From positions 311,072 through 375,071 of the forward strand of contig CBDEKM010000008.1 in the NCBI GenBank assembly GCA_965240335.1: a DNA stretch of 64,000 bases. Direction: 5' to 3'. Positions 14,817 through 58,121 of this stretch are shown here, piece by piece; the stretch's first letter is position 1; the number at the start of each line of letters is the position of its first letter. The translations under genes were made by a program, and so were the position numbers. The notes beneath the pieces were generated by a model that was given only the letters and a program-made list of their open reading frames with translations, searched no databases and had not been told where the DNA came from. Source of the DNA: a bacterium (lineage in GTDB: Bacteria; JAAXHH01).

Positions 14817-15758
14817 CTATACATTCATATCAGCCACGATATCGTCGATTTGTAAACGATGTTCGTCGGATAGCTCCCAACCCACCGCGTCGATGTTCTG
14901 TTCAACGTGGGCAGGACGCGTCGCTCCGCACAGGACCGACGTGATTCCCGGCTGGCGGGCCGTCCAGTGGATGACGAGCTGGGCGATGGATTTCCCGTAT
15001 GCATCGGCGATGGGTTTCATCCGATCGAGCGTGTCGAGCGTACGCCCCATCGCTTCCCCCTTGAACCGGCCGTCGTCGTTACGGGAATCGCCTTCCGGAA
15101 ACTGGTGGCCCCGGCCATATTTCCCGGTCAGCAGTCCCTTGTACAGCGGCCAGTAAGAGATCACGCCGATGCGGTGGTGCAGGCAGTGGGGCAGGATTTC
15201 CGCCTCGATGTCGCGGATGAGCAGGTTGTAGGGCGGCTGGTCCGAGTGCAGTGGCGCATGGTCTGCGAAACTTTTCATCTGCGCCACGTCGTAATTGCTC
15301 ACGCCGATCGCCCGGATCTTGCCCTGTTCCTTCAGTTCAGCAAGCGTGATGGCCGTTTCCTCGAAGGGGGTGTCCTCGTCCGGCGCGTGCACCTGGTACA
15401 GGTCGATGTAGTCGGTATTCAAGCGGCGCAGGCTCTCCTCGATCTGCTCCAGAATGCGTTTCCGCGAACTGTCGCGCATCAGCGTGGTGCCATCCCAGTA
15501 CAGACCGCATTTCGTCGCCAGTACGATCTGGTCTCGCCTGCCGGCGATGGCCCGGCCCACCAGCCGTTCCGATTCGCCGTTCCGCCCGTACATGTACGCG
15601 GTGTCGATGAGGGTAATGCCGCCGTCCATGGCCGCCTCCAGCGCCGCCAGGGACTCGTTGTCGTCGATGCCGGTCCAGCCGACGCCGGCCATGGGCCAGC
15701 AACCCATGCCGACGGCCGATACCGTCAGGCCCGATTCACCCAGTGCTCTGTATTCCAT
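14817..15758 (-). CDS. Aldo/keto reductase
   Basis: 313 aa. MEYRALGESGLTVSAVGMGCW..., IDTAYMYG, ATK catalytic Lys, IPGATR-type C-terminal motif (LCGATRPAHVEQN). Confidence 0.85.
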   Translation of the reverse strand: MEYRALGESGLTVSAVGMGCWPMAGVGWTGIDDNESLAALEAAMDGGITLIDTAYMYGRNGESERLVGRAIAGRRDQIVLATKCGLYWDGTTLMRDSSRKRILEQIEESLRRLNTDYIDLYQVHAPDEDTPFEETAITLAELKEQGKIRAIGVSNYDVAQMKSFADHAPLHSDQPPYNLLIRDIEAEILPHCLHHRIGVISYWPLYKGLLTGKYGRGHQFPEGDSRNDDGRFKGEAMGRTLDTLDRMKPIADAYGKSIAQLVIHWTARQPGITSVLCGATRPAHVEQNIDAVGWELSDEHRLQIDDIVADMNV

Positions 15759-24702: not shown

Positions 24703-24840
24703 GGTATCGCATACTAAGCACGCTATGGGGTATGTGTCAAGTTCGTCCCACAGGCAGTTCCTTTTGTACACGCCGCGACAGGTTCGCTGCCAGTGCTGCG
24801 CCAGGTTCGCAGGCAACGCGCAGGACCACGGTTGGCATCG

Positions 24841-24917: not shown

Positions 24918-26006
24918 ATGTCCACGGTCTATCGTGTCGGCATTATTGGCTGCGGCAGCATCTCGAATCTACACATGCAGGGATACCTCGGCGAACCCCG
25001 GTTCAAGGTCGTCGCGCTTGCGGACCCGGTGCCCGGAGCCAGGCAGGATTTCGGCGATCGCTACGGGATCGAAAATCGCTACGCCGACGTCCGCGAGATG
25101 ATGGACGAGGAGCACCTGGACGTTGTCAGCATCTGTACCTGGCACAAGCTGCACGCCCCCATGACCATCGCCGCCTGTGCACGCCGCCCGAAGGCCATCC
25201 TCTGCGAAAAGCCCATGGCCATCAACATGGGCGAATGTGACGAGATGATGATCGCCGCCCGGCGGAATGACGTCAAACTTGCCATCGCTCACCAGCGGCG
25301 GTTCAACCCGGTGTGGACCGACGCCCGAAACCTGATCGCGGAAGGGGCGATCGGCGCGGTGCGCCACGTGACGTGCAGCGGGAGCCAGGGCTTGCTCAAC
25401 GACTGTTCCCACATGTTCGATTTCATGCGTTACGTCCTGGGTGACCCGGCGCCCGAGTGGGTAATCGGGAACATTGAACGTAAGACGGACCGATACGAGC
25501 GGGACATCCGGATCGAGGACCGCAGCGCGGGCATCGTCGGATTCGACAACGGCGCCGTGGGCATGCTCCTCCAGGAGCTGCATCCCGAGCGTCGCCAGGG
25601 CGGGTACGTTTACGGTACGGACGGCATGATGGACATAAACGAGCAGCGGGTACTCCTCATCAACTCGAAAACCGGAGGATGGGAAGAGCGGCCGTCCACG
25701 GGCGAGGACCCGAGCGTGGGCCAGGCCGTGGAATTGGCGGACTGGATTGAAGGCAAGTCCGGCCACCGCGGCGAGGCCTCCAACGGCCGGGCCGCCGTGG
25801 AGATCATCATGGGAATCTACGAGTCGGCGCGGCTCCACGAAGTCGTGCAGATGCCCGTACGTACCCACAGTTCTCCCATCGAAGAAATGATCGAAAGCGG
25901 CGACCTGCCCGTGGAACGCCCCGGCCGTTACGATATCCGGGCTTTCCTGCTGCGCGGAGAGTCCATGCAGGGTGAAATGCCAGGCGAAACAGATGAAGAA
26001 GGCTGA
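24918..26006 (+). CDS. Gfo/Idh/MocA family NAD(P)-dependent oxidoreductase
   Basis: Start at ATG 24918 with AGGGAGGAG SD. GIIGCGSISNLH Rossmann motif, EKP motif (LCEKPMA). Confidence 0.8.
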   Translation: MSTVYRVGIIGCGSISNLHMQGYLGEPRFKVVALADPVPGARQDFGDRYGIENRYADVREMMDEEHLDVVSICTWHKLHAPMTIAACARRPKAILCEKPMAINMGECDEMMIAARRNDVKLAIAHQRRFNPVWTDARNLIAEGAIGAVRHVTCSGSQGLLNDCSHMFDFMRYVLGDPAPEWVIGNIERKTDRYERDIRIEDRSAGIVGFDNGAVGMLLQELHPERRQGGYVYGTDGMMDINEQRVLLINSKTGGWEERPSTGEDPSVGQAVELADWIEGKSGHRGEASNGRAAVEIIMGIYESARLHEVVQMPVRTHSSPIEEMIESGDLPVERPGRYDIRAFLLRGESMQGEMPGETDEEG

Positions 26007-27027
26007 CCGCGCGGAAATCGGCCGGACGGGGTTGAAGATCAGTCGCCTGGGACTCGGCGGAGCCCCGTTGGCCGGCCTGTACCGGGGCGTTTCCGACGAG
26101 CAGTCCGCCCAGGTCGTAAATACCTATCTCGATCACGGCCTGGGCTTCTTCGACACGGCACCACTTTATGGCAGCGGCGTGAGCGAGACCCGTCTGGGCG
26201 CCGTACTGTCAGGGCACAGTCGCGACCGCGGAATCGACCTTGACAGCGACCTTGACCGCGGCATTGACCGCGATTCCTTCGTGCTCGCTACGTAGGTTGG
26301 CCGCCTCCTGGTGCCCGATCCGGCACGAGACCAGGACGTCTGGTCCGAAGATCTCCCACCCATCGGGCCGGTTTTCGACTACAGCTACGACGGCACGCTG
26401 CGATCCCTGGAGGAAAGTCTCGCGCGTCTGGGCCTGGATCGCGTGGATATCCTGCACATCCACGATCCGGACAACCACTACGACGAGGCGATGAAGGGCA
26501 GTTACAGGGCCCTGGTCCGACTTCGCGACGAAGGCGTGATCCGCGCCGTGGGCGCCGGTATGAACCAGGCGAAGATGCTCTCCCGTTTCGCCCAAGAGGG
26601 CGATTTTGATTGCTTCCTGTGTGCGGGCCGTTACACCCTGGTGGACCATAATGCATTAAAACAACTACTGCCCCTTTGCGTCGAACGAAATATCAGCCTC
26701 ATCATCGGCGGTCCCTACAACAGCGGCATCCTGGCCCAGGGCGCTGTGGAAGGCGCGAAATTCGATTACCGGAAGGCGCCGTCGCAGATCGTGGAAAAAG
26801 TTCGCCAAATTGAAGCGGTATGCGGCCGCCACGGCACGCCCCTCAAGGCAGCGGCGCTGCAGTTTCCCCTGGCCCATCCCGCGGTGGCCGCCGTCATTCC
26901 TGGCGCCCGTTCCTCGGAGGAAGTGAACGAAAACGTAAAGATGTTCGAGTTCGTGATTCCCGCGGACTTCTGGGCCGAACTGCGGGAGGAGGGACTGGTT
27001 CCCGACAAGGCGCCGACGCCGGCGTGA
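25993..27027 (+). pseudogene. Aldo/keto reductase gene interrupted by an in-frame TAG exactly at the catalytic-lysine codon, preceded by a 42-nt in-frame insertion of imperfect tandem repeats
   Basis: Same reading frame before and after the stop. ...SGHSRD[RGIDLDSDLDRGID]RDSFVLAT* (TAG 26293-26295) VGRLLVPD... The canonical AKR motif is RDxxVIATK. Downstream part carries IPGARS and the rest of the fold. Confidence 0.6.
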
Positions 27028-27127: not shown

Positions 27128-27460
27128 ATGAGCAACCCCCAACGCTACGGCATGGTCCTGAAGGTCAAGCCGGAACGGCTCGAGGAATACAAGGAATACC
27201 ACAAGGAAATCTGGCCTGGCGTGGCAAAAATGATCACGGAGTGCAACATCACGAATTACTCCATCTACCTGAAGGACGGTTACCTCTTTTCCTATTTTGA
27301 ATACGTCGGTGATGACTTCAAGGCGGACATGGACAAAATGGCCGGCGATCCGGTCACACAGCAATGGTGGGACGTGATGATGCCCATGCAGGATCCCCTA
27401 CCGACCCGGAAAGAGGGCGAGTGGTGGGCGGAGATGGAGGAAGTCTTCCACCAGGATTGA
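27128..27460 (+). CDS. rhaM: L-rhamnose mutarotase
   Basis: 110 aa. MVLKVKPERLEEYKEYHKEIWPGV...YSIYLKDGYLFSYFEY, characteristic of RhaM. Confidence 0.8.
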   Translation: MSNPQRYGMVLKVKPERLEEYKEYHKEIWPGVAKMITECNITNYSIYLKDGYLFSYFEYVGDDFKADMDKMAGDPVTQQWWDVMMPMQDPLPTRKEGEWWAEMEEVFHQD

Positions 27461-27505
27461 GCATTGAGCCACGATAAGGATTCTACGCGACCAGGACTCC
27501 ACAAT

Positions 27506-37544: not shown

Positions 37545-38264
37545 ATGAAGAAAGTCCTGTTGCTCGGTGCGTCCGGACTCATCGCGCCGCACATCATCCC
37601 GTCGCTGGAGAAGGACTACGACCTGAAACTGGCCGACATCAAGGAACATCCGGACGGTAAACCCATTCTCAACGTGGATGTCCGTGATTACGGCCAGGTC
37701 CGCGAAGCCGTGGAGGGTGTGGACGCCGTGATGAACTTCACGGTGCTGCGCCACGACGACGTCCTCAGCTTCCAGGTGAACACCATCGGAGCCTGGAACG
37801 TCATGAGGGCGGCGGCCGACGCGGGGATCAAGAAAGTAATCCACTCCGGTCCCGCCCAGACCCTTGAGTGGTATACCCACGATACGGACATCCCCGTCGA
37901 CGCGCCCGACGCTCCGTCCACCGACTACTATTTCATCACCAAGCACATGAGCAACGAGATCGTCAGGAGCTTCGCCCGGCGCCATGAGATCCACACGGTC
38001 TGCTACCTGTTCCAGGGCCTGGCGCCCCGGCCGACCCAGCCCGCCAGAAAGACGTCGACCCGGGATTTCCTCATCATATACGACGATCTTGCCGTGGCCT
38101 GCCGCCAGGGACTCGAGCTCTCCTCGGTGCCTGGCTTCTACCAGGTCTTCAACCTCCACAGCCATTACGGACCGGGAAAGTACAGCCTCGAGAAGGCGGA
38201 GCGCATCCTGGGGTATGCTCCGCAGGAGAAGTGGTGGGACTGGAAACGTAGGCCGGCAGGCTAA
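37545..38264 (+). CDS. NAD-dependent epimerase/dehydratase family protein (atypical SDR)
   Basis: 239 aa. MKKVLLLGASGLIAPHII..., YxxxK-like YYFITKHMSNE. Confidence 0.6.
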   Translation: MKKVLLLGASGLIAPHIIPSLEKDYDLKLADIKEHPDGKPILNVDVRDYGQVREAVEGVDAVMNFTVLRHDDVLSFQVNTIGAWNVMRAAADAGIKKVIHSGPAQTLEWYTHDTDIPVDAPDAPSTDYYFITKHMSNEIVRSFARRHEIHTVCYLFQGLAPRPTQPARKTSTRDFLIIYDDLAVACRQGLELSSVPGFYQVFNLHSHYGPGKYSLEKAERILGYAPQEKWWDWKRRPAG

Positions 38265-44702: not shown

Positions 44703-45326
44703 ATTGAAAGGAGGGAGGAATCTGAAATCACGAAAAGAGCCATATTTGTCTATACATCGGGAAAACGATCAAATAAGAGAAGAATCATAAAAAAGTTTTT
44801 GACTGAAGCATATTTACGGTAATAAATACTTGATTTAACAATGGGGAGCTGGTAAACTATCCCATGATTAATCCCACACTTGACAAAAATACAAAAAAGT
44901 TATTGACTTTGGCGCAGTTACGGGATTATTTACTTGATTTTGTAGCACGGTCCATATATACTAAGTCTTGTTTTCCGAAGAGGTTTCAGTCACGGAAAGC
45001 AAAATTGACACACGGTGAAGTAAGCGATACCCTTGCACCTCTTGGAGAGGTTGCAGGATAACGGGTAACGGTTTTCGTATGTTTGCAGTTGCGGTAATGA
45101 CCTTAAGATCATTCAGGTGTAAGAGCGTTTTACTCCACAACGCGCACGTCATTCTAAGGAGAATCAATATATGTGTGTTAGTCCGGTGCGGCCTGAAGCT
45201 AAACACGGTTCTCATGTTGCATTCTCCCGACGGGAATCCCGGTCTGATCATGCCGGCTTTTCCGCAAAGCGTATAGAAATGTGTGATCATCCATCCTTTC
45301 TTATAAGGTTTAAGGAGAATTTACAT

Positions 45327-48300
45327 ATGCGGTACATTTCCAGGTTCAAGAACTCTATACGTGCTTCGAGCGTTTACAGCCTGGCGTTCATGTTTGTGTT
45401 CGCCTTAGCTGCGAACCTGACGACGTACGAAGAAGCCCACGCACAGCGTTCGATTCAGCTGATTGTGGATGCGCCGGACCCTGCGGAATTGATGGAGACC
45501 GGTACTGCGACTACCGTTACGCTGTCAGCTGAGCATGTTGTAATAGATGAGGATTTAGCACTACCGACCGAAGCGATCACTATTACAGTAAAGTTACCCG
45601 TGCTCGAGGGAATGAATCCGGATTATGCCATCACAGACACTGATGGTACCGATGACGGAATGGTGGAGTTAACGCTCACTGGGGCTAGTTCCAATACGGT
45701 TAACTTCACCATAACCCCCCGTGACGATTCTGTCTTTGAAGCGGATAGGACAATTTCATTAACTGGTGAGGCCTCGGGATATGTCGTGCTTGCCGCCAAA
45801 ATCAAACTGCTGGATGACGATCATCAGCTGGAATTGTCAGTCGAACCATCTACGGTAAATGAGGATAAGGGCGAGCAGACGGTGATCGTGACCGCAAACC
45901 TCACTGAAGACGCGCCGTTAGCTACCACTGTGCCGTTGACGATATCTCCTGCGTCGACGTCGTTTTATACTCTTAGCGCTACCGCGCTGTCGATTCAGAT
46001 ATCGGCAGGTTCGAGTTCAGGTACGGCTAAGTTTAACATCACGCCTGTCGACAACGACACTTACGATGGTAACCAGAAGATCAAGGTTGATCTTAATGAT
46101 GCTCAGAGCAATCTGGCACTTAGAGAAGCGAAAGAGATCGTGCTGGCGGACGACGAAAGCCCACCCGCCTTGGATCTCTCCGTATCTCCTTCCAGTATTA
46201 AAGAGGCCAATGGCGCTCAGACAGTGACGGTGACCGCGAAGTTGACAGATGGCGTGCTGTTGTCGTCATCTACAGTGGTCACAGTCAATATCGCTGCCAA
46301 TGACGATCAGTATACTCTGAGCACCAAAGTACTTGCAATAACGATCAGGGCCAAACGTGATTCGGGGAGTGCTAGGCTTACTATTACTCCTGAGCCGGAT
46401 GGAACTTACGAAAGGCACATGGCCATTGGTCTGACCGGTAGAGCGACCATATTGGATGACGTAAACATCAGCGATACTGCGACGGTAACGTTGTTGGATG
46501 ATGATCAGGAAGTTACACTGTCGGTGTCGCCTGCGACGGTAAAAGGCGCAGCGGCGGAGGTAGTCATCACGGCCTTGTTGGATCGGCCAGCCAGGGATGC
46601 CAGTGGTTTCGACGTACCCATAACCATCGGTGAAGCAAATCCCTCCGCATATTCTTTGTCAGCTGAAACTGATGTCGGGCTATCCGGTAATGGATTGACG
46701 ATCACGGTTCCGACTGGATCCTCGATGCGATCAGTGACGGTGACTGTTACACCGGTTGATGTATATGCCGCCGGTAACGCGCAATACAATCGCGATGTAG
46801 AGATTGGCGTTGATGTCGCTGACGCTGGCCCGCTGGGGAGATCAGCCAAGATCACGCTGAAGGACTCGATCGACCGGCCGAAGCTGGAACTGGCGGTGAC
46901 GCCGGAAACTGTGATGGAAGAGCCGGCGATGGACGACGATGCCAATACTGATGGCGTTCAAACTGAATTAACCATCACGGCTACGCTGGACGGCGGGACT
47001 TTTCAAGGCGATTTTGGTGTAGTTGTAGAAATCTCCGAGGATGATGATTTCTATACCGTGTCTTCTAAAGAAGTAACCTTGACTCCCGCCGGTTCTTCGT
47101 CTGGACCATGGACGGGAACAGTGATGGTCACGCCTGATCCGGACAGCAAGTTCGAGGCGTACCAGACCATCTCCTTCTCGGCCAAAGCGACCGAAGCGAG
47201 TCCACCTGACGGAAGTGACGCGATCGAGTTAACGGCAAGCGATACGGTTCAGTTGCAGGACAACGATCATCACGTGACCTTGGCTGTAGAGCCTTCGTCA
47301 GTGACCGAAGAAGGCGGAGAACAGACGGTGATCGTGACCGCAGAACTGACCGCTCCTGCACCGATAGCGACCACAGTGCCGGTGACCTTGTCGCCCACGA
47401 CCTCATCGTTCTACAGTCTGGACGCTCATGTACTGTCAATCCAGATTGGAGCCGGTGCGAGTTCCGGTACGGCGAAGCTGAACGTCACGCCAGTCGACAA
47501 CAACACCTACAATGGTACACAGAAGATCAAGGTTGACATTGCAGACTCGAGTCCGCTGGTACTTCGCGCTACTAAAGAGATCGCGGTGACCGACGACGAG
47601 AATCTACCGGTGATGTCATTGTCGGTGGATCCGGATGAGATCACCGAGGCCGGTGGCGCGCAGACGGTGAGCGTAACGGCTAAGCTGATGGACGGCGTGA
47701 TACTGTCGACGCCCACGGTGGTGACGGTGAAGGTAGTCGACGATGACGAGCAGTATGCGCTGAGCTCGAAAGAGTTCGCGATCACGATTCCTGCCAACCA
47801 GGCAACCATGTCGGCGAACCTGCTCATTACACCTGAACCCGATGGGACCTACGAATCCCACCTGGGTATCGGTCTGTCGGCCGAAGCGACCATCAAGGAC
47901 GGCGATGATGACGTCAAGCTCAGCGCTGCCACGACGGTAACGCTGCTGGACGATGATCAGGAGGTTACGCTGTCAGTGTCGCCTGCGACGGTGAAGGGCG
48001 AAGCGACAGATGTAGTCATCACGGCCACACTGGACCGGCCAGCACGAGGCGTTAACGGTCTCACGGTTCCCGTAATGATCGCGACGGGTGGTAGCCATAG
48101 CTTGACAGATGAAGATGGAAATGCCATAGCTAATGGCCTCGTGAACATCGTGGTCCCAACGAGTGCTTCCGCACAGTCGATTACGGTTACGGTGACACCT
48201 GCCGGTGATTACGCCACCGGAACCGGCTACAATCGGGACGTGGGAATTGACGTTACGGTCACCAGTGCCAGCAACCTGCTGGGCCGGGAGGCGACGATCA

Positions 48301-51300
48301 CGTTGAAGGACTCGATCGACCTGCCGAAGTTGGAACTGGCGGTGACGCCGGAAACTGTGATGGAAGAGCCGGCGATGGACGACGATGCCAATACTGATGG
48401 CGTTCAAACTGAATTGACCATCACCGCCACACTGGAAGGCGGAACCTTTGGGACTGATTTCGAGGTAGTCGTAGAAATCTCCGAGAATGAGGATTTCTAT
48501 ACCTTATCCGCAAACGAGGTGACCTTTACGATTAGCGCGAATGGCACGTCTGGAACCGGAACGGTGAACATCACGCCTGACCCGGACAGCAAGTTCGAGG
48601 CGTACCAGACGATCTCGTTCTCGGCCAAGGCGACTGAAGATGTTACTGAAGATGCGATCGAGTTGACGGCAAGCGATACGGTTCAGTTGCAGGACAACGA
48701 TCATCACGTGACCCTGTCCGTAGAGCCTTCGTCAGTGACCGAGGATGGCGGAGAGCAGACGGTGATCGTGACTGCGGAACTGACCGCTCCTGCGCCGATA
48801 GCGACCACGGTGCCGGTGACCTTGTCGCCCACGACTTCGTCGTTCTACAGTCTGGACGCTCATGCGTTGGCGATTCAGATTGGAGCCGGTTCGAGTTCCG
48901 GTACGGCGAAGCTGAACGTCACGCCAGTCGACAACGACACCTACAATGGCACCCAGAAGATCAAGGTTGACATTGCAGACTCGAGTCCGCTGGTACTTCG
49001 CGCATCTAAAGAGATCGTGGTGACCGACGACGAGAATCTGCCGGTGATGTCTTTGTCGGTGGATCCGGAGGAGATCACCGAGGCCGATGGCGCGCAGACG
49101 GTGAGCGTGACGGCGAAGCTGATGGACGGCGTGCTGCTGTCGACGCCCACGGTTGTGACGGTGAAGGTGGCCGACGATGACGAGCAGTACGCACTGAGTT
49201 CGAAAGAGTTCGCGATCACGATTCCTGCCAACCAGGCAACCATGTCGGCGAACCTGGTCATTACACCTGAGCCCGATGGGACCTACGAATCCCACATGGG
49301 TATCGGTCTATCGGCCGAAGCGACCATCAAGGACGGCGATGATGACGTCAAGCTCAGCGCTGCCGCGACGGTAACGTTGCTGGACGATGATCAGGAGGTC
49401 ACGCTGTCGGTGACTCCAGGTACTGTGAAGGGCGACGCGACAGAGGTTATCATCACGGCCACGCTGGACCGGCCGGCTCGGGGCAACAACGGTCTCACCG
49501 TACCCGTAATGATCGGGGCTTCAGGTGACAGCGGTTATAGTTGGTCAGCTGAAGGTGTAACCAGCCCAAGTCCTGGCGATGTGGTGAACATCGTGGTCCC
49601 AACGAGTGCCTCTGAGCAATCCATGGCGGTGACGATTACTCCTACTGGTGATTACGCCACCGGAACCGGCTACAATCGGGACGTGGGAATTGACGTTACG
49701 GTCACCAGTGCCAGCAACCTGCTGGGCCGGGAGGCGACGATCACGTTGAAGGACTCGATCGACCTGCCGAAGTTGGAACTGGCGGTGACGCCGGAAACTG
49801 TGATGGAAGAGCCGGCGATGGACGACGATGCCAATACTGATGGCGTTCAAACTGAATTGACCATCACCGCCACACTGGAAGGCGGAACCTTTGGGACTGA
49901 TTTCGAGGTAGTCGTAGAAATCTCCGAGAATGAGGATTTCTATACCTTATCCGCAAACGAGGTGACCTTTACGATTAGCGCGAATGGCACGTCTGGAACC
50001 GGAACGGTGAACATCACGCCTGACCCGGACAGCAAGTTCGAGGCGTACCAGACGATCTCGTTCTCGGCCAAGGCGACTGAAGATGTTACTGAAGATGCGA
50101 TCGAGTTGACGGCAAGCGATACGGTTCAGTTGCAGGACAACGATCATCACGTGACCCTGTCCGTAGAGCCTTCGTCAGTGACCGAGGATGGCGGAGAGCA
50201 GACGGTGATCGTGACTGCGGAACTGACCGCTCCTGCGCCGATAGCGACCACGGTGCCATTGACCTTGTCGCCCACGACTTCGTCGTTCTACAGTCTGGAC
50301 GCTCATGCGCTGGCGATTCAGATTGGAGCCGGATCGAGTACCGGCACGGCGAAGCTGAACGTCACGCCGGTCGACAACGACACCTACAATGGCACCCAGA
50401 AGATCAAGGTTGACATTGCAGACTCGAGTCCGCTGGTACTTCGCGCTTCTAAAGAGATCGCGGTGACCGACGACGAGAATCTGCCTGTGATGTCTTTGTC
50501 AGTGGATCCGGAAGAGATCAACGAGGCCGATGGCGCTCAGTCGGTGAGCGTAACGGCTAAGCTGATGGACGGCGTGCTGCTGCAGACGCCCACGGTTGTG
50601 ACGGTGAAGGTGGCCGACGATGACGAGCAGTACGCACTGAGCTCGAAAGAGTTCGCGATCACGATTCCTGCCAATCAGGAATCCATGTCTGCGAACCTGG
50701 TCATTACGCCGATACCGGATGGAGCGTACGAAGCTCACATGGGTATCGGTCTGTCGGCCGAAGCAACCATCAAGGACGGCGATGATGACGTCAAGCTCAG
50801 CGCTACCGCGACGGTAAAGCTGCTGGACGATGATCAGGAGATCACGCTGGCGGTGTCGACCGCGACGGTGAAGGGCAAGGCGACGGACGTAGCCATCACG
50901 GCTATGCTGGACCGGCCGGCCCGCGGTACTAACGGTCTCACCGTACCCGTAATGATCGGTGCCGACGGCGATGATCAGTATACTTTGTCGTCTGAAGGTA
51001 CCCCCAGTCTCGCACCAGGTGGCACGGTGAACATCGTGGTCGCCACAGGTACATCCGCGAAATCGGTAACTGTAACGGTGACGCCAGCCGAGACCTATGT
51101 CGCAACTGACATGAATTACGATCGTGATGTAGGGATCGATGTTACGATCGCTGATGGCACAGCTTTGCTGGGCCGGTCGACGAAGATCACGCTGAACGAC
51201 TCGATTGATCTGCCGAAGCTGGAACTGGCGGTGACGCCGGATACTGTGATGGAAGAGCCAGCAGTGGATGCTGATAATGATGCAGCTAATGGCGTTCAAA

Positions 51301-54300
51301 CGCGGCTGACCATCATGGCCACGCTGGACGGTGGAACCTTTACGAACAATTTCGATATTGTCGTAGAAGTTTCACAGGATACTGATTTCTACAGCGTGTC
51401 CTTGGAAGAGGTAACATTAACTGGTTCTGCTAACGGACCCTGGACCGGAACGGTGGATATCACGCCTGATCCGGACAGCAAGTTCGAGGCGTACCAGACA
51501 ATATCGTTCTCTGCCGAAGCGACCGAGCAGAATCCTCCTGCGGGAAGCGATGCGATCGAGTTGACGGCAAGCGATAAAGTGCAGTTACGTGACAATGATC
51601 ATCACGTGACGCTGGCTGTAGATCCAGCTTCAGTAAATGAAGAAGACGGAGTACAAACGGTAGAGGTGACGGCGATGTTGACCGCACCTGCGCCTGTAGC
51701 TACCACGGTGCCGGTGACGTTGTCGCCTGCGACCTCGTCGTACTACAGTCTGGACGCTCATGCACTGGCAATAGAGATCGGGGCCGGTTCGAGTGAAGGC
51801 ACGAAGGAACTTAACATCACACCGGTCGACAACGACACCTACAATGGCACCCAGAAGATCAAGGTTGACATTGCAGATTCAAGTCCCCTGGTACTTCGCG
51901 GTTCGAAAGAGATCTCGGTAATTGACGACGAAAGCCTGCCGGTGCTCGCACTGACAGTGGATCCGTCCGAAGTTAACGAGGGTGGTGGCGCTCAGTCAGT
52001 AAGCGTGACTGCTGAACTGGTCGACGGTGTCGTGTTGCAGACGCCTACAATCGTAACCGTGAAGGTGGACGCCGATGACGATCAGTATGCGTTGAGTTCA
52101 AAAGAGTTTGCGATTACGATTCCAGCCAATCGGGATTCGAGATCCGCGGACTTGATTATTACTCCTAAGTCTGATGGATTGTTCGAAGCTCACATGGCAA
52201 TAGGTCTGTCGGCAGAAACAACCATCAAAGACGGCGATGATGACGTAGATCTCAGCGCTGCAGCGACGGTAACGCTGTTGGACGATGATCATGAAGTCAC
52301 GCTATCGGTTTCACCTGGTGAGGTGTCGGAAGTTGGCGGAAGCTTTCCTGTGACTGTAAAGGCAAGATTGAATAGTCCCGCAAAGAGTGACCTCACGATA
52401 CCGGTTGAGATCGAAACATATGATGAGAATGCGAATTCTCATCCTATCGGGTTTACCGTGACGGATACTGACAACACACCGAATGACGGTATGGTTGATA
52501 TTTCCATTGCCGCTGGAAAGTCAGAGGCGTCAACTACGGTGATGATCGCCGCGACATACAATGCCGATCATACCGAAAACGCTGTCATTAACGTAACAGG
52601 AGGAGATATCGCATTATCGGTTAGACCAACAACAATCTTGATCAGAGACTACGAACAGGTCTCTATACAGTTATTGGCTAGCCATCCCAGTATCACTGAA
52701 GCCGGAGGTTTACAGACTGTTGAGATCACGGCTGAAATAACACCCAATGCAATCGGTGATGATGTAGCTATCAGTCTAGCAGTCGGTGGACAGGCGACAC
52801 TGAATGAAGATTTCGGCGTTAGTGGTTTGCTGGAAATCGAAATCGGTGCCGGTAGTACCGAGGGATCGACGGAACTTACCTTCATACCGGTTGACGATTT
52901 TGTGAATGAGTTCAACGAGACGATTACGGTTTCTGGTTCAACAGTTGGCGGACATAGTGTTAGCTCGGTATCCATTGTGTTGGCTGATAACAATGAGATA
53001 CCACTGGCTAGTATCTCGGCGCCTTCAGTTGAACTTAGCGAAGCTGATGATGCCGTAACCGAGATCGCAGTAACTGCTACGCTGGCTGGAACGAGTGGTG
53101 AACCTATTAATGTAGTGCTTGATATTAATGGTTCGGCCACGGCCGGTGTTGACTATGAGGTTAGTGGAGATCTCAGGTTCTCGATAAATCCCGGAGACAG
53201 CAGTTACACGGCTAATGTCGCAATCACGGTCTTGGATGATGCGCTCTATGAGGGTAATGAGACCGTTGTGATCGAAGCCAGCGCGTCCTTGGGAGATCTT
53301 GAACTACCCAATAGATCTCAACCATTGAGATATATGATTATTGACAACGATTCGGCACCGATGATTGCCCTCTCAGTGGATGTAGAAACAATAAATGAGG
53401 GTGACGAAGCGACGGATGTGACCATCACTGCCACCGCATCCAGTGCTAGTGCCGTCAACATTCCAATCACGTTGGCCAAGCCTGGTACGGCCGTAATTGG
53501 TGAAGACTTCATGGTCTCGTCCGAACAGGAAGATTTCATCATAATCGCAGGCGAAACTACAGCAACGAAGGTAGTGACGATCACGCCGATCGATGATGAA
53601 ATCTATGAAGGTGACGAGCACTTCATGGTCAACGGTACGGTACCGGGTTCCGACGGTGAAATAGACGTCGACGGCACGATGATCACGCTGACTGACAACG
53701 ATGATGTGCCGACGGTTGCACTGACCGTGGAACCCGATATGATTGCTGAGGGTAGTGAAGTCGAATTCACGATCACGGCCACGCCGTCTCACATGAGTTC
53801 CATGCCGATTACAATCGTACTGGACAAGTCGGGTGGATCGGCTACGCTTGGCGAGGATTTCGAGATTGTAGCGGCTACCGAAGGCGAGTACGTGATCGAA
53901 GCGATGGATTCGTCCGCTACGAAGATGGTCACGCTTTCGGCTATAGCCGATATGCTCTACGAGCAGGAAGAGATCATCGTTGTGGGTGGAATGTCAATGG
54001 CAGGTGATTCGGAAGGCATAGCGGTTATGACTGACGAGATCACGCTGACCGACGGCGATCCGATGCCGATGGTCACGCTGATGGCGGACATGGAGTCGAT
54101 CAATGAGAACGGCGAGGCCGTGGACGTAACGGTTACGGCCATGCTTTCCGGTTTGAGTTCCATGCCCATCACAGTGGAACTGGCCAAGTCCGGTTCGGCC
54201 ACGAAGGGCGAGGACTACACCGTAACCGGCGAAGGTGCAATCACGGTTGCTGCCGGCGATGAAATGGGTATGACGATACTGACGATCGTTCCGGTAGATG

Positions 54301-57300
54301 ACGATGTCTACGAACGCGATGAGATGATTGTCATAGGCGGTACGGCCGGCGATGAAATAGCCCAAGCCGCGTCGATCACCTTGGTGGACGACGATCCGAT
54401 GCCGATGGTGGTACTGATGACGGACGTGGTGTCTATCACCGAGAACGGTGGAGCCCAGGAAGTGACGGTAACGGCAACGCTGTCCGGCTTGAGTTCTTTG
54501 CCCATCACGGTTGAACTGGCCAAGTCCGGTTCGGCCACGAAGGACGAGGACTACACCGTAACCGGCGAAGGTTCCATCACGGTTGCTGCCGGCGATGAAA
54601 TGGGTATGACGATACTGACGATCGCCCCGGTAGATGATGATGTCTACGAACGCGATGAGATGATTGTCATAGGCGGTACGGCCGGCGATGAAATAGCCCA
54701 GGCCGCGTCGATCACCCTGGTAGACGACGAAACGAAGCCGATAGTGGAACTGATGACGGACGTGGTGTCTATCACCGAAGACAGTGGAGCCCAGGAAGTG
54801 ACGGTAACGGCAACGCTGTCCGGCTTGAGTTCTATGCCCATCACGGTTGAACTGGCCAAGTCCGGTTCGGCCACGAAGGGCGAGGACTACACCGTGACCG
54901 GCGAAGGTTCAATCACGGTTGCTGCCGGCGAAGAAATGGGTATGACAATTCTGACGATCGCCCCGGTAGATGATGTTGTCTACGAACGCGATGAGATGAT
55001 TGTCATAGGCGGTACGGCGGCCGGTGACGAAGTGGCTACGACAGCATCGATCACGCTGGTCGACGACGAAACCATGCCTACGATTGCCCTTTCAGTAGAC
55101 ACTGATTCCGTGATGGAGGATGGCGGCGATCAGGAGGTCGTGGTTACCGCGACGGCATCCGGCTTGAGTTCCATGCCCATCGATGTTGTACTGGCGAAGT
55201 CCGGTACGGCCATTAAGGGCGAGGATTACACTGTGACCGGCGATGGTACGATCACGGTCGCGGCTCTTGCGATCGACGGCGTTACGACGCTGACAATCAC
55301 ACCTGTAGACGACGACGTCTATGAGAATGATGAGACGATCGTGGTTGGCGGTGAAGGTGTGTTGGAATCGGCAACGGTGACGCTGGTTGATGACGAAACC
55401 ATGCCTATGTTCACGCTGATGGCGGATCCGTCGGCGGTCATGGAGAATGCCGGTCCTACGCCTGTCGTAGTGACGGCGACCGCTTCGGGACTTAGTTCGA
55501 TGCCCATGACCCTGACGCTCCTTCCGTTACCGGATCAAGGCACCATTACGATTGGTGAAGACGCGGGCGTGACGGGTGATCTGTTCATCACAGTTGTCCC
55601 CGGTGCGCTGGAAGGCAGCACGACACTGACGGCATTGGTTATTGACGACGATATCTACGAGGGCGACGAGTACGTTGTGATCGTTGGAAATATAGGTGAT
55701 ATGGTCACGCCATCCATTACACTGACCATCATCGATGACGAAATGCAGCCGACGGTCACGCTGTCGCTGGATCCCGAGGCCGTGGAAGAAGGTGGCGGAG
55801 CGCAGCCCTTCACCGTATCGGGTGAAGCTTCCGGCAGAAGTTCAATGGACATGACAGTCATGCTCGGTCCGTTGCCGACGAGTACGGTAACGCTGGGTGA
55901 AGACGGCATAGTCGATGGAACCATGTCGTTCGTCATATCCGCGCTGGAGACCGAAGGCAGCACGACGCTGACGGCCGTGCCAGCGGATGACGATCTCTAC
56001 GAGACGACGGAGTACCTGGTCGTCGGCGGTAGTGTGAACGGTGTACCTACTGCCAACGCGGTGACGCTGGCGATCATGGACAACGACTCGCCGGACGTAG
56101 CGTTGAGCGTGAGTCCGACAGCTATTCGTGAAGACGGCGGCGCCCAGACGGTCACCGTGGAAGTGGTGATGTCAGGTATACCAGTACCCGTACCGACAGA
56201 TATTTCGCTGGCCCTGTCGGGTACGGCCGGTAACGCCGATTACACCATGTCCGGTACGCCGACTCTGCAGATTGCCGCCGGTGAAACGACAGCGTCGACG
56301 CAGTTGACTTTCGCGGTTGTTCCCGACGATATCTACGAGCCAAGTAACGAGACCATCGTACTAACGGCGAATTGGAACGCCACGAATATCGGTTCAGCTA
56401 CAATTAACGTGATCGACGATTACGCTCCGCCTTCGGTAATTAGCGCGCTTCCCGCGATATCATTGGAAGCCGGTGATTCGAGGCAAATGGATGTGGCTGG
56501 TACTTTCAGCGGCCGGGTTCTGGTGTTCGCGGCAACATCTTCGGATGTCGGCATAGCCACTGCAACGCTTTCTGGATCGGCACTGACGATCGAGGGAGTG
56601 CGCAAGGGTGCGGCGCGGGTCACGGTCACGGCGACTAATGACGCGTCGTCCGCGAGTTACGATATAGATGTAACCGTCACGGCAATTGCTGCAGAGCGGG
56701 AAGTCTATACCGACATCCTGGCGGCTATGGCACGGAGCATCATGTCGAGCGTCTCGCAGACGATCGGCGGTCGGTTCTCCGTTGGCGCAGCGGAACGTCA
56801 GATCGCGCTGGCCAACAGGCGTGTGGACGGAATGGCGGCCGGTTTGGAAGCCATGATCAGCCTGTCCGGTGCTCAGTCGACAAGAAAGTACGGTATCACA
56901 GATGATACCACGAATCGGCTTAGCAGGCAGCCGGTCTCCACCCGTGAACTGATGCGCGGTACGTCCTTCTACTACGCCCTCGACGATGCACCTCAGGGCG
57001 GTACGAACGGCGGATTGAGCTTCACGATCTGGGGAGCTGGTGACTGGAATGCCTTCGAAGGTGCGCATGATGTGGGCACCAGTTACGACGGAACGGTGAC
57101 CTCCGGCTATCTCGGTATCGATGTATCGAAGACCGCCAGCTGGATCGCCGGTGTGGCTGTCGGACGTACCATGGGTACTTCGGACTACGATGTAACCGTC
57201 ACTGACGGAACGTTGGAAGCCACCCTGAACAGTGTGTATCCTTACGTACACTGGACGGGTCCCGGTTGCTGCATCGAAATCTGGGCTATCGGTGGTTTCG

Positions 57301-58121
57301 GTACGGGTGAAGCCGAAGTAAGCGACGGTACGAGCGACCTGTCCATGAGTCTGGGTATGGTCGGTGTGCGCGCCCAGTTGGTCGGCGCTGCATCGGGCGG
57401 TCTGGACCTCGACCTGATCGGTGACGCAGGAATGACCAAGCTGTCGACGGCTGACAGCGAGTCCGCTTCCCTGAGCGACCTGGAAGCCAGCGTACAGCGC
57501 GTACGCGTGGGTCTCGAAGCTTCACGTACCTCCGACATGGGCAACGGCATGCTGGTAACGCCTTTCGCCCAGGTAGCCGGTCGGTATGACGCAGGTGACG
57601 GTGATACGGGTAACGGTCTTGAAGTTGCCGGTGGTCTTCGGATTGCCGGTGGCAGGGCTGGTCTCGAAGCCCGCGGTCGCCTGCTTGCCATGCATACTGG
57701 CGAAGAAGTCAAGGAGCACGGCGTGTCGGTGGTTGCTTACGTGAGGCCGATGGGCGCCGGCGGACAGGGTCTGTCGATGGCTATCGCTCCTCGTCTCGGC
57801 GCTGATACCGAAATGTCCAGTAACATCTGGCGCGAAGAACCGATGAACGACGTTAGAAGTTCGTCTCGGTCAGGCGTCGGTATGAAAGCTGAAATCGGTT
57901 ACGGTCTCCTGACTCCGATGATGAGCAGCATCGTGGTGACTCCGTTCGGTACGATGGACATGGCCGGTGATGACCAGCGCCGCATGCGTCTTGGCGCACG
58001 GTTCGGTTCCATCGGCGACACGACTACCGTACTGAGATTCGAGCTCGTTGGCGAGCGCATCGACGGCAACGGCCGTGCGACGGATCATCGCATCGGCCTG
58101 CTCGGTAGGATGAGCTTCTAA
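45327..58121 (+). CDS. Giant (4264 aa) surface protein: signal peptide, >35 Calx-beta/Ig-like repeat domains, Big_2-like domain, C-terminal autotransporter-like beta-barrel
   Basis: AAGGAG SD 9 nt before ATG 45327. Signal peptide MRYISRFKNSIRASSVYSLAFMFVFALAANL. Recurrent Calx-beta signatures (GEDYTVTGEG..ITVAAGDEMGMTILTIVPVDDDVYERDEMIVIGG). Penultimate Big_2-like unit. Final ~430 aa show alternating-hydrophobic beta-strand patterns and end in ...LLGRMSF. GC about 52% versus about 63% in flanks. Confidence 0.75.
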   Translation: MRYISRFKNSIRASSVYSLAFMFVFALAANLTTYEEAHAQRSIQLIVDAPDPAELMETGTATTVTLSAEHVVIDEDLALPTEAITITVKLPVLEGMNPDYAITDTDGTDDGMVELTLTGASSNTVNFTITPRDDSVFEADRTISLTGEASGYVVLAAKIKLLDDDHQLELSVEPSTVNEDKGEQTVIVTANLTEDAPLATTVPLTISPASTSFYTLSATALSIQISAGSSSGTAKFNITPVDNDTYDGNQKIKVDLNDAQSNLALREAKEIVLADDESPPALDLSVSPSSIKEANGAQTVTVTAKLTDGVLLSSSTVVTVNIAANDDQYTLSTKVLAITIRAKRDSGSARLTITPEPDGTYERHMAIGLTGRATILDDVNISDTATVTLLDDDQEVTLSVSPATVKGAAAEVVITALLDRPARDASGFDVPITIGEANPSAYSLSAETDVGLSGNGLTITVPTGSSMRSVTVTVTPVDVYAAGNAQYNRDVEIGVDVADAGPLGRSAKITLKDSIDRPKLELAVTPETVMEEPAMDDDANTDGVQTELTITATLDGGTFQGDFGVVVEISEDDDFYTVSSKEVTLTPAGSSSGPWTGTVMVTPDPDSKFEAYQTISFSAKATEASPPDGSDAIELTASDTVQLQDNDHHVTLAVEPSSVTEEGGEQTVIVTAELTAPAPIATTVPVTLSPTTSSFYSLDAHVLSIQIGAGASSGTAKLNVTPVDNNTYNGTQKIKVDIADSSPLVLRATKEIAVTDDENLPVMSLSVDPDEITEAGGAQTVSVTAKLMDGVILSTPTVVTVKVVDDDEQYALSSKEFAITIPANQATMSANLLITPEPDGTYESHLGIGLSAEATIKDGDDDVKLSAATTVTLLDDDQEVTLSVSPATVKGEATDVVITATLDRPARGVNGLTVPVMIATGGSHSLTDEDGNAIANGLVNIVVPTSASAQSITVTVTPAGDYATGTGYNRDVGIDVTVTSASNLLGREATITLKDSIDLPKLELAVTPETVMEEPAMDDDANTDGVQTELTITATLEGGTFGTDFEVVVEISENEDFYTLSANEVTFTISANGTSGTGTVNITPDPDSKFEAYQTISFSAKATEDVTEDAIELTASDTVQLQDNDHHVTLSVEPSSVTEDGGEQTVIVTAELTAPAPIATTVPVTLSPTTSSFYSLDAHALAIQIGAGSSSGTAKLNVTPVDNDTYNGTQKIKVDIADSSPLVLRASKEIVVTDDENLPVMSLSVDPEEITEADGAQTVSVTAKLMDGVLLSTPTVVTVKVADDDEQYALSSKEFAITIPANQATMSANLVITPEPDGTYESHMGIGLSAEATIKDGDDDVKLSAAATVTLLDDDQEVTLSVTPGTVKGDATEVIITATLDRPARGNNGLTVPVMIGASGDSGYSWSAEGVTSPSPGDVVNIVVPTSASEQSMAVTITPTGDYATGTGYNRDVGIDVTVTSASNLLGREATITLKDSIDLPKLELAVTPETVMEEPAMDDDANTDGVQTELTITATLEGGTFGTDFEVVVEISENEDFYTLSANEVTFTISANGTSGTGTVNITPDPDSKFEAYQTISFSAKATEDVTEDAIELTASDTVQLQDNDHHVTLSVEPSSVTEDGGEQTVIVTAELTAPAPIATTVPLTLSPTTSSFYSLDAHALAIQIGAGSSTGTAKLNVTPVDNDTYNGTQKIKVDIADSSPLVLRASKEIAVTDDENLPVMSLSVDPEEINEADGAQSVSVTAKLMDGVLLQTPTVVTVKVADDDEQYALSSKEFAITIPANQESMSANLVITPIPDGAYEAHMGIGLSAEATIKDGDDDVKLSATATVKLLDDDQEITLAVSTATVKGKATDVAITAMLDRPARGTNGLTVPVMIGADGDDQYTLSSEGTPSLAPGGTVNIVVATGTSAKSVTVTVTPAETYVATDMNYDRDVGIDVTIADGTALLGRSTKITLNDSIDLPKLELAVTPDTVMEEPAVDADNDAANGVQTRLTIMATLDGGTFTNNFDIVVEVSQDTDFYSVSLEEVTLTGSANGPWTGTVDITPDPDSKFEAYQTISFSAEATEQNPPAGSDAIELTASDKVQLRDNDHHVTLAVDPASVNEEDGVQTVEVTAMLTAPAPVATTVPVTLSPATSSYYSLDAHALAIEIGAGSSEGTKELNITPVDNDTYNGTQKIKVDIADSSPLVLRGSKEISVIDDESLPVLALTVDPSEVNEGGGAQSVSVTAELVDGVVLQTPTIVTVKVDADDDQYALSSKEFAITIPANRDSRSADLIITPKSDGLFEAHMAIGLSAETTIKDGDDDVDLSAAATVTLLDDDHEVTLSVSPGEVSEVGGSFPVTVKARLNSPAKSDLTIPVEIETYDENANSHPIGFTVTDTDNTPNDGMVDISIAAGKSEASTTVMIAATYNADHTENAVINVTGGDIALSVRPTTILIRDYEQVSIQLLASHPSITEAGGLQTVEITAEITPNAIGDDVAISLAVGGQATLNEDFGVSGLLEIEIGAGSTEGSTELTFIPVDDFVNEFNETITVSGSTVGGHSVSSVSIVLADNNEIPLASISAPSVELSEADDAVTEIAVTATLAGTSGEPINVVLDINGSATAGVDYEVSGDLRFSINPGDSSYTANVAITVLDDALYEGNETVVIEASASLGDLELPNRSQPLRYMIIDNDSAPMIALSVDVETINEGDEATDVTITATASSASAVNIPITLAKPGTAVIGEDFMVSSEQEDFIIIAGETTATKVVTITPIDDEIYEGDEHFMVNGTVPGSDGEIDVDGTMITLTDNDDVPTVALTVEPDMIAEGSEVEFTITATPSHMSSMPITIVLDKSGGSATLGEDFEIVAATEGEYVIEAMDSSATKMVTLSAIADMLYEQEEIIVVGGMSMAGDSEGIAVMTDEITLTDGDPMPMVTLMADMESINENGEAVDVTVTAMLSGLSSMPITVELAKSGSATKGEDYTVTGEGAITVAAGDEMGMTILTIVPVDDDVYERDEMIVIGGTAGDEIAQAASITLVDDDPMPMVVLMTDVVSITENGGAQEVTVTATLSGLSSLPITVELAKSGSATKDEDYTVTGEGSITVAAGDEMGMTILTIAPVDDDVYERDEMIVIGGTAGDEIAQAASITLVDDETKPIVELMTDVVSITEDSGAQEVTVTATLSGLSSMPITVELAKSGSATKGEDYTVTGEGSITVAAGEEMGMTILTIAPVDDVVYERDEMIVIGGTAAGDEVATTASITLVDDETMPTIALSVDTDSVMEDGGDQEVVVTATASGLSSMPIDVVLAKSGTAIKGEDYTVTGDGTITVAALAIDGVTTLTITPVDDDVYENDETIVVGGEGVLESATVTLVDDETMPMFTLMADPSAVMENAGPTPVVVTATASGLSSMPMTLTLLPLPDQGTITIGEDAGVTGDLFITVVPGALEGSTTLTALVIDDDIYEGDEYVVIVGNIGDMVTPSITLTIIDDEMQPTVTLSLDPEAVEEGGGAQPFTVSGEASGRSSMDMTVMLGPLPTSTVTLGEDGIVDGTMSFVISALETEGSTTLTAVPADDDLYETTEYLVVGGSVNGVPTANAVTLAIMDNDSPDVALSVSPTAIREDGGAQTVTVEVVMSGIPVPVPTDISLALSGTAGNADYTMSGTPTLQIAAGETTASTQLTFAVVPDDIYEPSNETIVLTANWNATNIGSATINVIDDYAPPSVISALPAISLEAGDSRQMDVAGTFSGRVLVFAATSSDVGIATATLSGSALTIEGVRKGAARVTVTATNDASSASYDIDVTVTAIAAEREVYTDILAAMARSIMSSVSQTIGGRFSVGAAERQIALANRRVDGMAAGLEAMISLSGAQSTRKYGITDDTTNRLSRQPVSTRELMRGTSFYYALDDAPQGGTNGGLSFTIWGAGDWNAFEGAHDVGTSYDGTVTSGYLGIDVSKTASWIAGVAVGRTMGTSDYDVTVTDGTLEATLNSVYPYVHWTGPGCCIEIWAIGGFGTGEAEVSDGTSDLSMSLGMVGVRAQLVGAASGGLDLDLIGDAGMTKLSTADSESASLSDLEASVQRVRVGLEASRTSDMGNGMLVTPFAQVAGRYDAGDGDTGNGLEVAGGLRIAGGRAGLEARGRLLAMHTGEEVKEHGVSVVAYVRPMGAGGQGLSMAIAPRLGADTEMSSNIWREEPMNDVRSSSRSGVGMKAEIGYGLLTPMMSSIVVTPFGTMDMAGDDQRRMRLGARFGSIGDTTTVLRFELVGERIDGNGRATDHRIGLLGRMSF
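46491..52263 (+). repeat. Four tandem 1443-bp (481-aa) super-repeats inside the giant gene; copies 2 and 3 include >550 bp of 100% identity
   Basis: Units start with LLDDDQEVTLSVSPATVKG... at about 46491, 47934, 49377 and 50820. Identical spurious antisense ORFs at 48504-48707 and 49947-50150 (offset exactly 1443) confirm the period. Flanking repeat sequence is about 97% identical. Confidence 0.85.
54056..55060 (+). repeat. Three near-identical tandem 330-bp (110-aa Calx-beta) repeats, within a longer array of diverged copies (about 53340-56100)
   Basis: PMVTLMADMESINENGEAVDVTVTAMLSGLSSMPITVELAKSGSATKGEDYTVTGEG...ASITLVDDD repeated with only a few substitutions. Antisense ORFs 54308-54538 and 54644-54874 are near-identical. 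Confidence 0.8.

Follow-up and report, generated by a model that had tools for sequence, protein, structure and literature searches.

The stretch of bacterial DNA analyzed here (64,000 nucleotides in its full length, hereinafter the window) carries an aldo/keto reductase (AKR) gene that is split by one in-frame TAG and lies between intact genes for a GFO/IDH/MocA-family oxidoreductase and a RhaM-family sugar mutarotase (Table 1). This arrangement had been noticed in a preliminary description of the window made from the sequence alone, and the domain matches of both neighbors bear it out. The translation of positions 25972–27027 in one frame contains a single internal stop and ends with a normal stop codon at 27025–27027; the start codon of the AKR gene (ATG at 25993) overlaps the stop codon of the upstream oxidoreductase gene.

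Table 1. Coordinates of the interrupted AKR gene, its neighbors and its sequence features in the window
Feature	Position	Strand	Remarks
GFO/IDH/MocA-family oxidoreductase gene, intact	24918–26006	+	open reading frame opens at 24732; probable start is the M of MSTVYRVG
AKR gene (L-galactose/L-fucose-type aldose 1-dehydrogenase family)	25993–27027	+	split by one in-frame TAG
Imperfect direct and tandem repeat DNA	26224–26273	+	direct repeat plus TRF array
14 extra in-frame codons, RGIDLDSDLDRGID	26227–26268	+	separate the first RD dipeptide of the RDRD baseline loop from the second
Five window-unique substitutions (26289, 26292, 26293, 26298, 26310)	26289–26310	+	columns invariant or nearly so in 12 orthologous loci
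Premature TAG at the catalytic Lys codon	26293–26295	+	Lys invariant in the family alignment; AAG or AAA in readable orthologous loci
Downstream two-thirds of the AKR gene	26296–27027	+	in frame, conserved
RhaM-family sugar mutarotase gene, intact	27128–27460	+	118.9 bits, full-length profile match

The aldo/keto reductase and its catalytic lysine codon

When a lysine is placed at the stop, the resulting 344-aa product matches the Pfam profile Aldo_ket_red (PF00248) with a score of 161.6 bits (cut-off, 24) over profile positions 1–288 of 291, that is, in full length. The best relatives of solved structure are L-galactose dehydrogenases (E-values from 6e-31 to 2e-26), and several homologs bear the name D-threo-aldose 1-dehydrogenase in JGI; none of the NCBIfam equivalogs matched the AKR at its cut-off. 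The catalytic tetrad Asp-Tyr-Lys-His of the spinach L-GalDH consists of Asp57, Tyr62, Lys90, and His127 (PMC9381564). In the window AKR, Asp54, Tyr59, and His157 are present and are invariant in the family alignment, whereas the codon for Lys101 is TAG, so that the tetrad is not fully encoded. Thus, the window AKR has Asp, Tyr, and His in common with the L-galactose dehydrogenase/D-threo-aldose (L-fucose) 1-dehydrogenase branch of the AKR superfamily, and its Lys position corresponds, but this position is occupied by TAG. Compared with the plant enzymes, the clade of the window AKR possesses, in addition, a hypervariable loop between helix α2 and strand β3 and a conserved extra segment of ~25 residues after β3. 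A (β/α)8 barrel, with alternating strand and helix elements, is seen in the model of the ortholog P0013 (pTM 0.85). Taken together, these comparisons point to a conserved aldose 1-dehydrogenase of the AKR superfamily.

Reading through the stop gives ...SGHSRDRGIDLDSDLDRGIDRDSFVLAT-stop-VGRLLVPD..., and the two open reading frames that flank the TAG (25972–26295 and 26311–27027) are in the same frame. In the alignment with the L-galactose dehydrogenase 7lh6_B, the TAG falls on the K of 'STKVGR'. Among the 11 related loci with a readable motif, the catalytic Lys codon is AAG in 10 and AAA in one, and about 56 close orthologous proteins carry Lys at this position. A single A-to-T change at 26293 separates the TAG from AAG, the codon found most often in the orthologs; GCC ACC AAG GTG in the nearest relative, L002, corresponds to GCT ACG TAG GTT in the window. 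The identification of the gene as an AKR, the location of the TAG at the catalytic Lys and the single A-to-T change, all of which had been proposed earlier, are therefore confirmed by the Pfam match, the 7lh6_B alignment and the 11 loci. The first possible restart, a GTG at 26311, would yield a 238-aa fragment without the Asp, Tyr, and Lys. As written, the gene cannot, judging from its sequence, be expected to give rise to an active enzyme.

No ortholog from the protein search was split by a stop at the Lys site. One protein of 238 aa (P0087), which starts exactly where the downstream open reading frame of the window starts, was considered as a second case of TAG and rejected: in its scaffold (L001), the Lys codon is a normal AAG, and P0087 was called as a fragment because the α2-β3 loop is covered by a gap of Ns. 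Two further candidates were discarded. An 8-nt palindrome that surrounds the stop, CTACGTAG, has one copy in the window, compared with 0.4 expected, and 29 of 100 shuffled sequences reach one copy, as expected by chance. Gene conversion from a paralog was rejected as well: the rest of the window contains no similar 20-mer, and its second AKR is only 24% identical.

A second variable low-complexity stretch, from 0 to about 60 residues in length, follows the N-terminal MRKDD (window 25993–26013) at the junction with the stop of the GFO/IDH/MocA gene. It is apparent in the N-termini of P0004, P0012, P0014, P0034, P0036, and P0040, and in L001 (5440–5660), where the repeats (ADPGAN...) disturb the start of the AKR gene as well as the end of the preceding gene. 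Some of the AKR orthologs begin directly at MAEIG, and the N-terminal extension may be dispensable or untranslated.

The gene neighborhood

Upstream, the gene order in the window is EamA, PfkB/SIS, HAD, MetH-like, a small open reading frame, DUF2339, GFO/IDH/MocA, and AKR; downstream of the AKR follow RhaM, PhyH, NHL, Amidohydro_2, two SDRs, a lactonase, and an acyl-CoA synthetase. The GFO/IDH/MocA gene is syntenic in L001, L031, L033, and L034, and the RhaM gene in all related loci examined; the relatives of the lineage are MAGs labeled Latescibacterota or Gemmatimonadota. The window shares its gene order with L033 (3.97 Mb), a relative whose AKR is intact, the only difference being a Big_2/LRR protein. 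In a more distant relative, the array GFO-AKR-RhaM-PhyH adjoins a sulfatase and a sugar-acid dehydratase.

Given this conserved cluster (GFO/IDH/MocA, RhaM, PhyH, NHL/SGL, a lactonase-like Amidohydro_2, SDRs, and a lactonase), the AKR would be the aldose 1-dehydrogenase of a sugar-oxidation route. The Amidohydro_2 protein of the cluster is weakly similar to L-fucono-1,5-lactonase, and the context of RhaM and Amidohydro_2 is no more than suggestive with regard to the L-galactose/L-fucose subgroup.

Several other features of the neighborhood deserve mention. The Big_2/leucine-rich-repeat protein (2020 aa, window 27464–33526, plus strand), encoded between RhaM and PhyH, occurs in L002 and in L034, whose ortholog also contains Peptidase_M66, is absent from L033, and is reduced in L001 to a Big-like open reading frame of 119 aa. 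The second AKR gene of the window (14817–15758, minus strand) is intact, encodes 313 aa with the motif RDQIVLATKCG, is 24% identical to the interrupted one and ends in TAG. The tandem short SDR/epimerase-family genes (36771–37511 and 37545–38264, plus strand; 246 and 239 aa) occur as a pair also in L033. In a giant open reading frame of 4316 aa (45171–58121, plus strand), the only recognizable domain is Calx-beta (residues 2606–2705). A search for internal promoter or terminator signals gave nothing meaningful.

The variable α2-β3 loop

Just upstream of the TAG, the AKR gene contains an insertion with repeats, the existence of which was correctly described before; the repeats are modest, consisting of a 16-nt direct repeat (26224–26239 and 26254–26269; 88% identity, 30 nt apart) and a TRF array with a period of 12 (26235–26273; 3.2 copies, score 57). 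Compared with L002, the window loop is 30 nt longer, and compared with the 10-residue baseline, it is longer by 16 codons.

A search of a large protein collection yielded about 60 orthologs that are 80–88% identical to the window AKR and 323–398 aa in length; where source labels are given, these are MAGs of Latescibacterota, Gemmatimonadota, or Zixibacteria. The length differences among the orthologs concentrate at two sites, namely the stretch that follows MRKDD and the α2-β3 loop. The length of the loop, defined as the number of residues between the RLG motif and FVLATK, was determined for 56 close orthologs and for 24 more distant homologs. Among the close orthologs, the loop ranges from 10 to 52 residues, with 27 distinct lengths, and exceeds the baseline of 10 in 41 of the 56; in 23 of the 24 distant homologs, it is 10 residues long. 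The window loop consists of 26 residues. The hypervariable region corresponds to window positions 26200–26277 and was also observed in L003, L006, L007, L009–L011, L018, and L019, and in the proteins P0001–P0062. In the AlphaFold model of P0013, which has a loop of 28 residues, the segment lies between a helix (residues 73–91) and the strand that carries the Lys (residues 109–114), and the mean pLDDT of residues 91–100 is 53. The model thus places the loop between α2 and β3, outside the predicted active-site strand. In (β/α)8 barrels, the loops that lead from helix to strand are located on the face opposite the catalytic face.

That the orthologs have insertions of widely differing lengths at this site argues that the extra segment is tolerated and does not represent damage. 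The preliminary description had counted this segment as one of two independent lesions, allowing that its presence in orthologs would make it a tolerated loop; since the alignment of the orthologs finds just such insertions, only the TAG remains as a lesion. Judging from the compared sequences, the extra segment is a tolerated state of a clade-wide hypervariable surface loop, unrelated to inactivation.

With respect to the origin of this variability, the baseline loop, xRDRD(S/T)F, is encoded in L003 by CGCGACCGCGAC, a perfect two-copy hexamer, and peptide repeats are visible in the longer orthologous loops, for example, RVRGGRASVRGGRASVRGGRA in P0040. Probably, the loop grows and shrinks in frame by replication slippage that would have been seeded by (CGCGAC)2, which encodes Arg-Asp-Arg-Asp. 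The loop resembles known in-frame slippage length polymorphisms of low-complexity or tandem-repeat loops in that its units are multiples of three, it contains a TRF array, and it varies both in length and in sequence, but typical cases concern surface or contingency proteins, whereas this loop is part of a metabolic enzyme. Phase-variable (frame-shifting) behavior of the loop was not seen. The data support the α2-β3 loop as a hypervariable region that is probably driven by slippage. For annotators, this means that a variable low-complexity loop next to the catalytic strand is the normal state in this clade rather than a sign of damage, and also that the loop can break short-read scaffolds.

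Origin of the stop and loss of the enzyme in relatives

The rest of the AKR gene was analyzed for traces of decay. In an alignment of 47 sequences, the window AKR deviates at 2 of the 237 nearly invariant columns, compared with 0–5 deviations in the intact orthologs and 13 in P0001, which comes from a contig with 2x coverage. Pairwise dN/dS values between the window AKR and 12 orthologous loci are in the range of 0.08–0.15 (the median among the others is 0.116). Neither the conserved columns nor dN/dS give a sign of relaxed selection in the window AKR, and no frameshift or further lesion was found in it. The absence of decay outside the TAG implies that the stop is either very young or not real. 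In having one premature stop in a conserved, syntenic gene with intact orthologs, the window AKR is similar to an ordinary nonsense pseudogene, but differs from it by the lack of any secondary decay.

These observations bear on the scenario in which the gene is an old pseudogene, hit twice, by the insertion and by the stop, with the pathway rewired around it. The insertion and the stop both exist and are adjacent, and the distant second AKR and the adjacent GFO/IDH/MocA gene, both intact, could in principle substitute for the interrupted enzyme. Nevertheless, insertions at the loop site are present in most of the intact orthologs (see above), conserved-site substitutions have not accumulated, and dN/dS is not raised. 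The rewiring that had been suggested at first finds no counterpart in the neighborhood either: the cluster is otherwise intact, its order and content are those of the relatives with an intact AKR, and the identity of the second AKR is low. Altogether, this scenario appears highly improbable.

An undamaged downstream frame would also be expected if the TAG were decoded, yielding the full-length enzyme, through programmed read-through, a suppressor tRNA, pyrrolysine, a near-cognate tRNA-Lys, or genome-wide reassignment. The TAG is one base away from AAG, the downstream frame is perfectly kept, and in some organisms, tRNAs for Gln, Tyr, or Lys do decode UAG at a low level as near-cognates. However, TAG terminates at least 6 genes of the window at complete domains (M28 peptidase, SufE, the second AKR, MetH-like, NHL, and Amidohydro_2) and, under a rough coding-potential model, closes 13 of 38 open reading frames, about a third. 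Reading TAG as a sense codon is not required for any other gene of the window. Furthermore, the 64-kb window contains no tRNA gene and no Rfam element, and none of the 11 related loci with a readable motif has TAG at the Lys site, so the stop is not conserved in the way a recoding site would be. Pyrrolysine would not be able to replace the ε-amine of a catalytic lysine. Thus, decoding of the TAG is extremely unlikely. The same assessment, that is, a very slim chance, applies to a leaky UAG, where low-level suppressor or near-cognate decoding, possibly by tRNA-Lys, which would restore the catalytic residue, would produce a little full-length dehydrogenase; if true, it would account for the undecayed downstream two-thirds of the AKR.

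A very recent, genuine A-to-T nonsense mutation at the catalytic Lys codon, either fixed or segregating, is the probable explanation. Under this scenario, the single change would stop translation after about 100 residues, and any product of a restart would have only one of the four catalytic residues, so that the enzyme would be lost; the mutation may be fixed, or the population may be polymorphic, with this allele having been the one assembled. The absence of decay is predicted by a recent mutation and equally by an artifact of sequencing, consensus building or assembly, or by a minor allele promoted into the consensus, in which case the codon in the organism would be AAG and the enzyme would be active. 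This alternative, the main one, is possible but, in our assessment, not likely.

Within 22 nt, the nonsense change is accompanied by four other window-unique substitutions (permutation P about 0.01 for one such cluster of five), and a second cluster of window-unique substitutions is found at 26651–26667; the two clusters together were obtained in 0 of 20,000 permutations. The first cluster is located 20–40 nt from the repeat, and the TAG itself 20–25 nt downstream of the repeat-rich hypervariable segment at which the L001 assembly has its gap. Such tight clustering next to a difficult segment is compatible with an artifact, as is the fact that the AKR is otherwise indistinguishable from intact orthologs under strong purifying selection. 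Obvious errors are also present in related long-read contigs: the orthologous gene in L035 (986–2016), a contig with 8x coverage, contains three +1 insertions, each lengthening a single base or a short run (homopolymer). We considered these frameshifts as a possible indication of clade-wide decay and rejected this interpretation because three +1 extensions at 8x coverage are likely to be long-read errors; L035 thus calls for caution with regard to disrupted genes in public assemblies.

Against an artifact, the other four changes in the first cluster are synonymous third-position substitutions, which favors real evolution over noise. The remainder of the window is clean, with about 45 apparently intact genes, including open reading frames of 12.9 kb and 6.1 kb, and without a frameshift, another internal stop or any other disrupted gene, and its domain matches extend over the full length. 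This indicates a low base-level error rate, and of the few errors to be expected, only a small share would be substitutions that create a stop. Searches for contigs of the same species gave nothing by exact-protein look-ups of the 238-aa downstream open reading frame and of RhaM, nor, in metagenome contigs, by exact DNA matching with position 26293 set to N, and protein-guided scans of genome and metagenome contigs retrieved only relatives with at most 85% identity. On balance, the TAG is probably carried by the organism itself and not confined to the consensus. The assertion that the locus reflects genuine inactivation rather than random error nonetheless goes beyond what can be concluded from the sequence, with one lesion and no relaxed constraint.

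Some additional local peculiarities were noticed. The second cluster falls within an AT-rich patch (26646–26690; GC content of 0.46 vs. 0.63 for the AKR gene) and consists mostly of G/C-to-A/T changes, including T-to-N and R-to-Q replacements; a multi-nucleotide mutation, a recombination tract and a local consensus problem are the candidate explanations. The nucleotide identity between the window and L002 is mosaic, with 94% at 26014–26216 and 78–81% at 26278–26680, which weakly hints at recombination at the loop, L002 being a 2x-coverage contig with local frameshift errors.

Loss of the same enzyme was detected in a related lineage. In L034, a contig of 3.69 Mb with 28x coverage, an in-frame deletion of 186 bp in the AKR gene (protein P0083; L034 3001–3831, equivalent to window 26354–26539) takes out β4 together with the catalytic His; an imperfect direct repeat of 13 nt, TCCSGSCCGTCGG, flanks the deletion. 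This stretch is also missing from the protein P0088, which is encoded in a separate ENA contig. The L034 deletion has inactivated the same enzyme independently, so that loss of the AKR appears to recur in the clade, and this precedent counts in favor of a real mutation in the window.

A young nonsense pseudogene and a consensus error would each be an ordinary event. If the mutation is real, the first oxidative step of a conserved cluster for the oxidation of deoxy-sugars or aldoses has only just been lost in this lineage. Given that a sister lineage has damaged the same step by a different mutation, the enzyme appears to be dispensable in some strains. The loss of the AKR, if real, would then be a small, ordinary case of strain-level metabolic variation.
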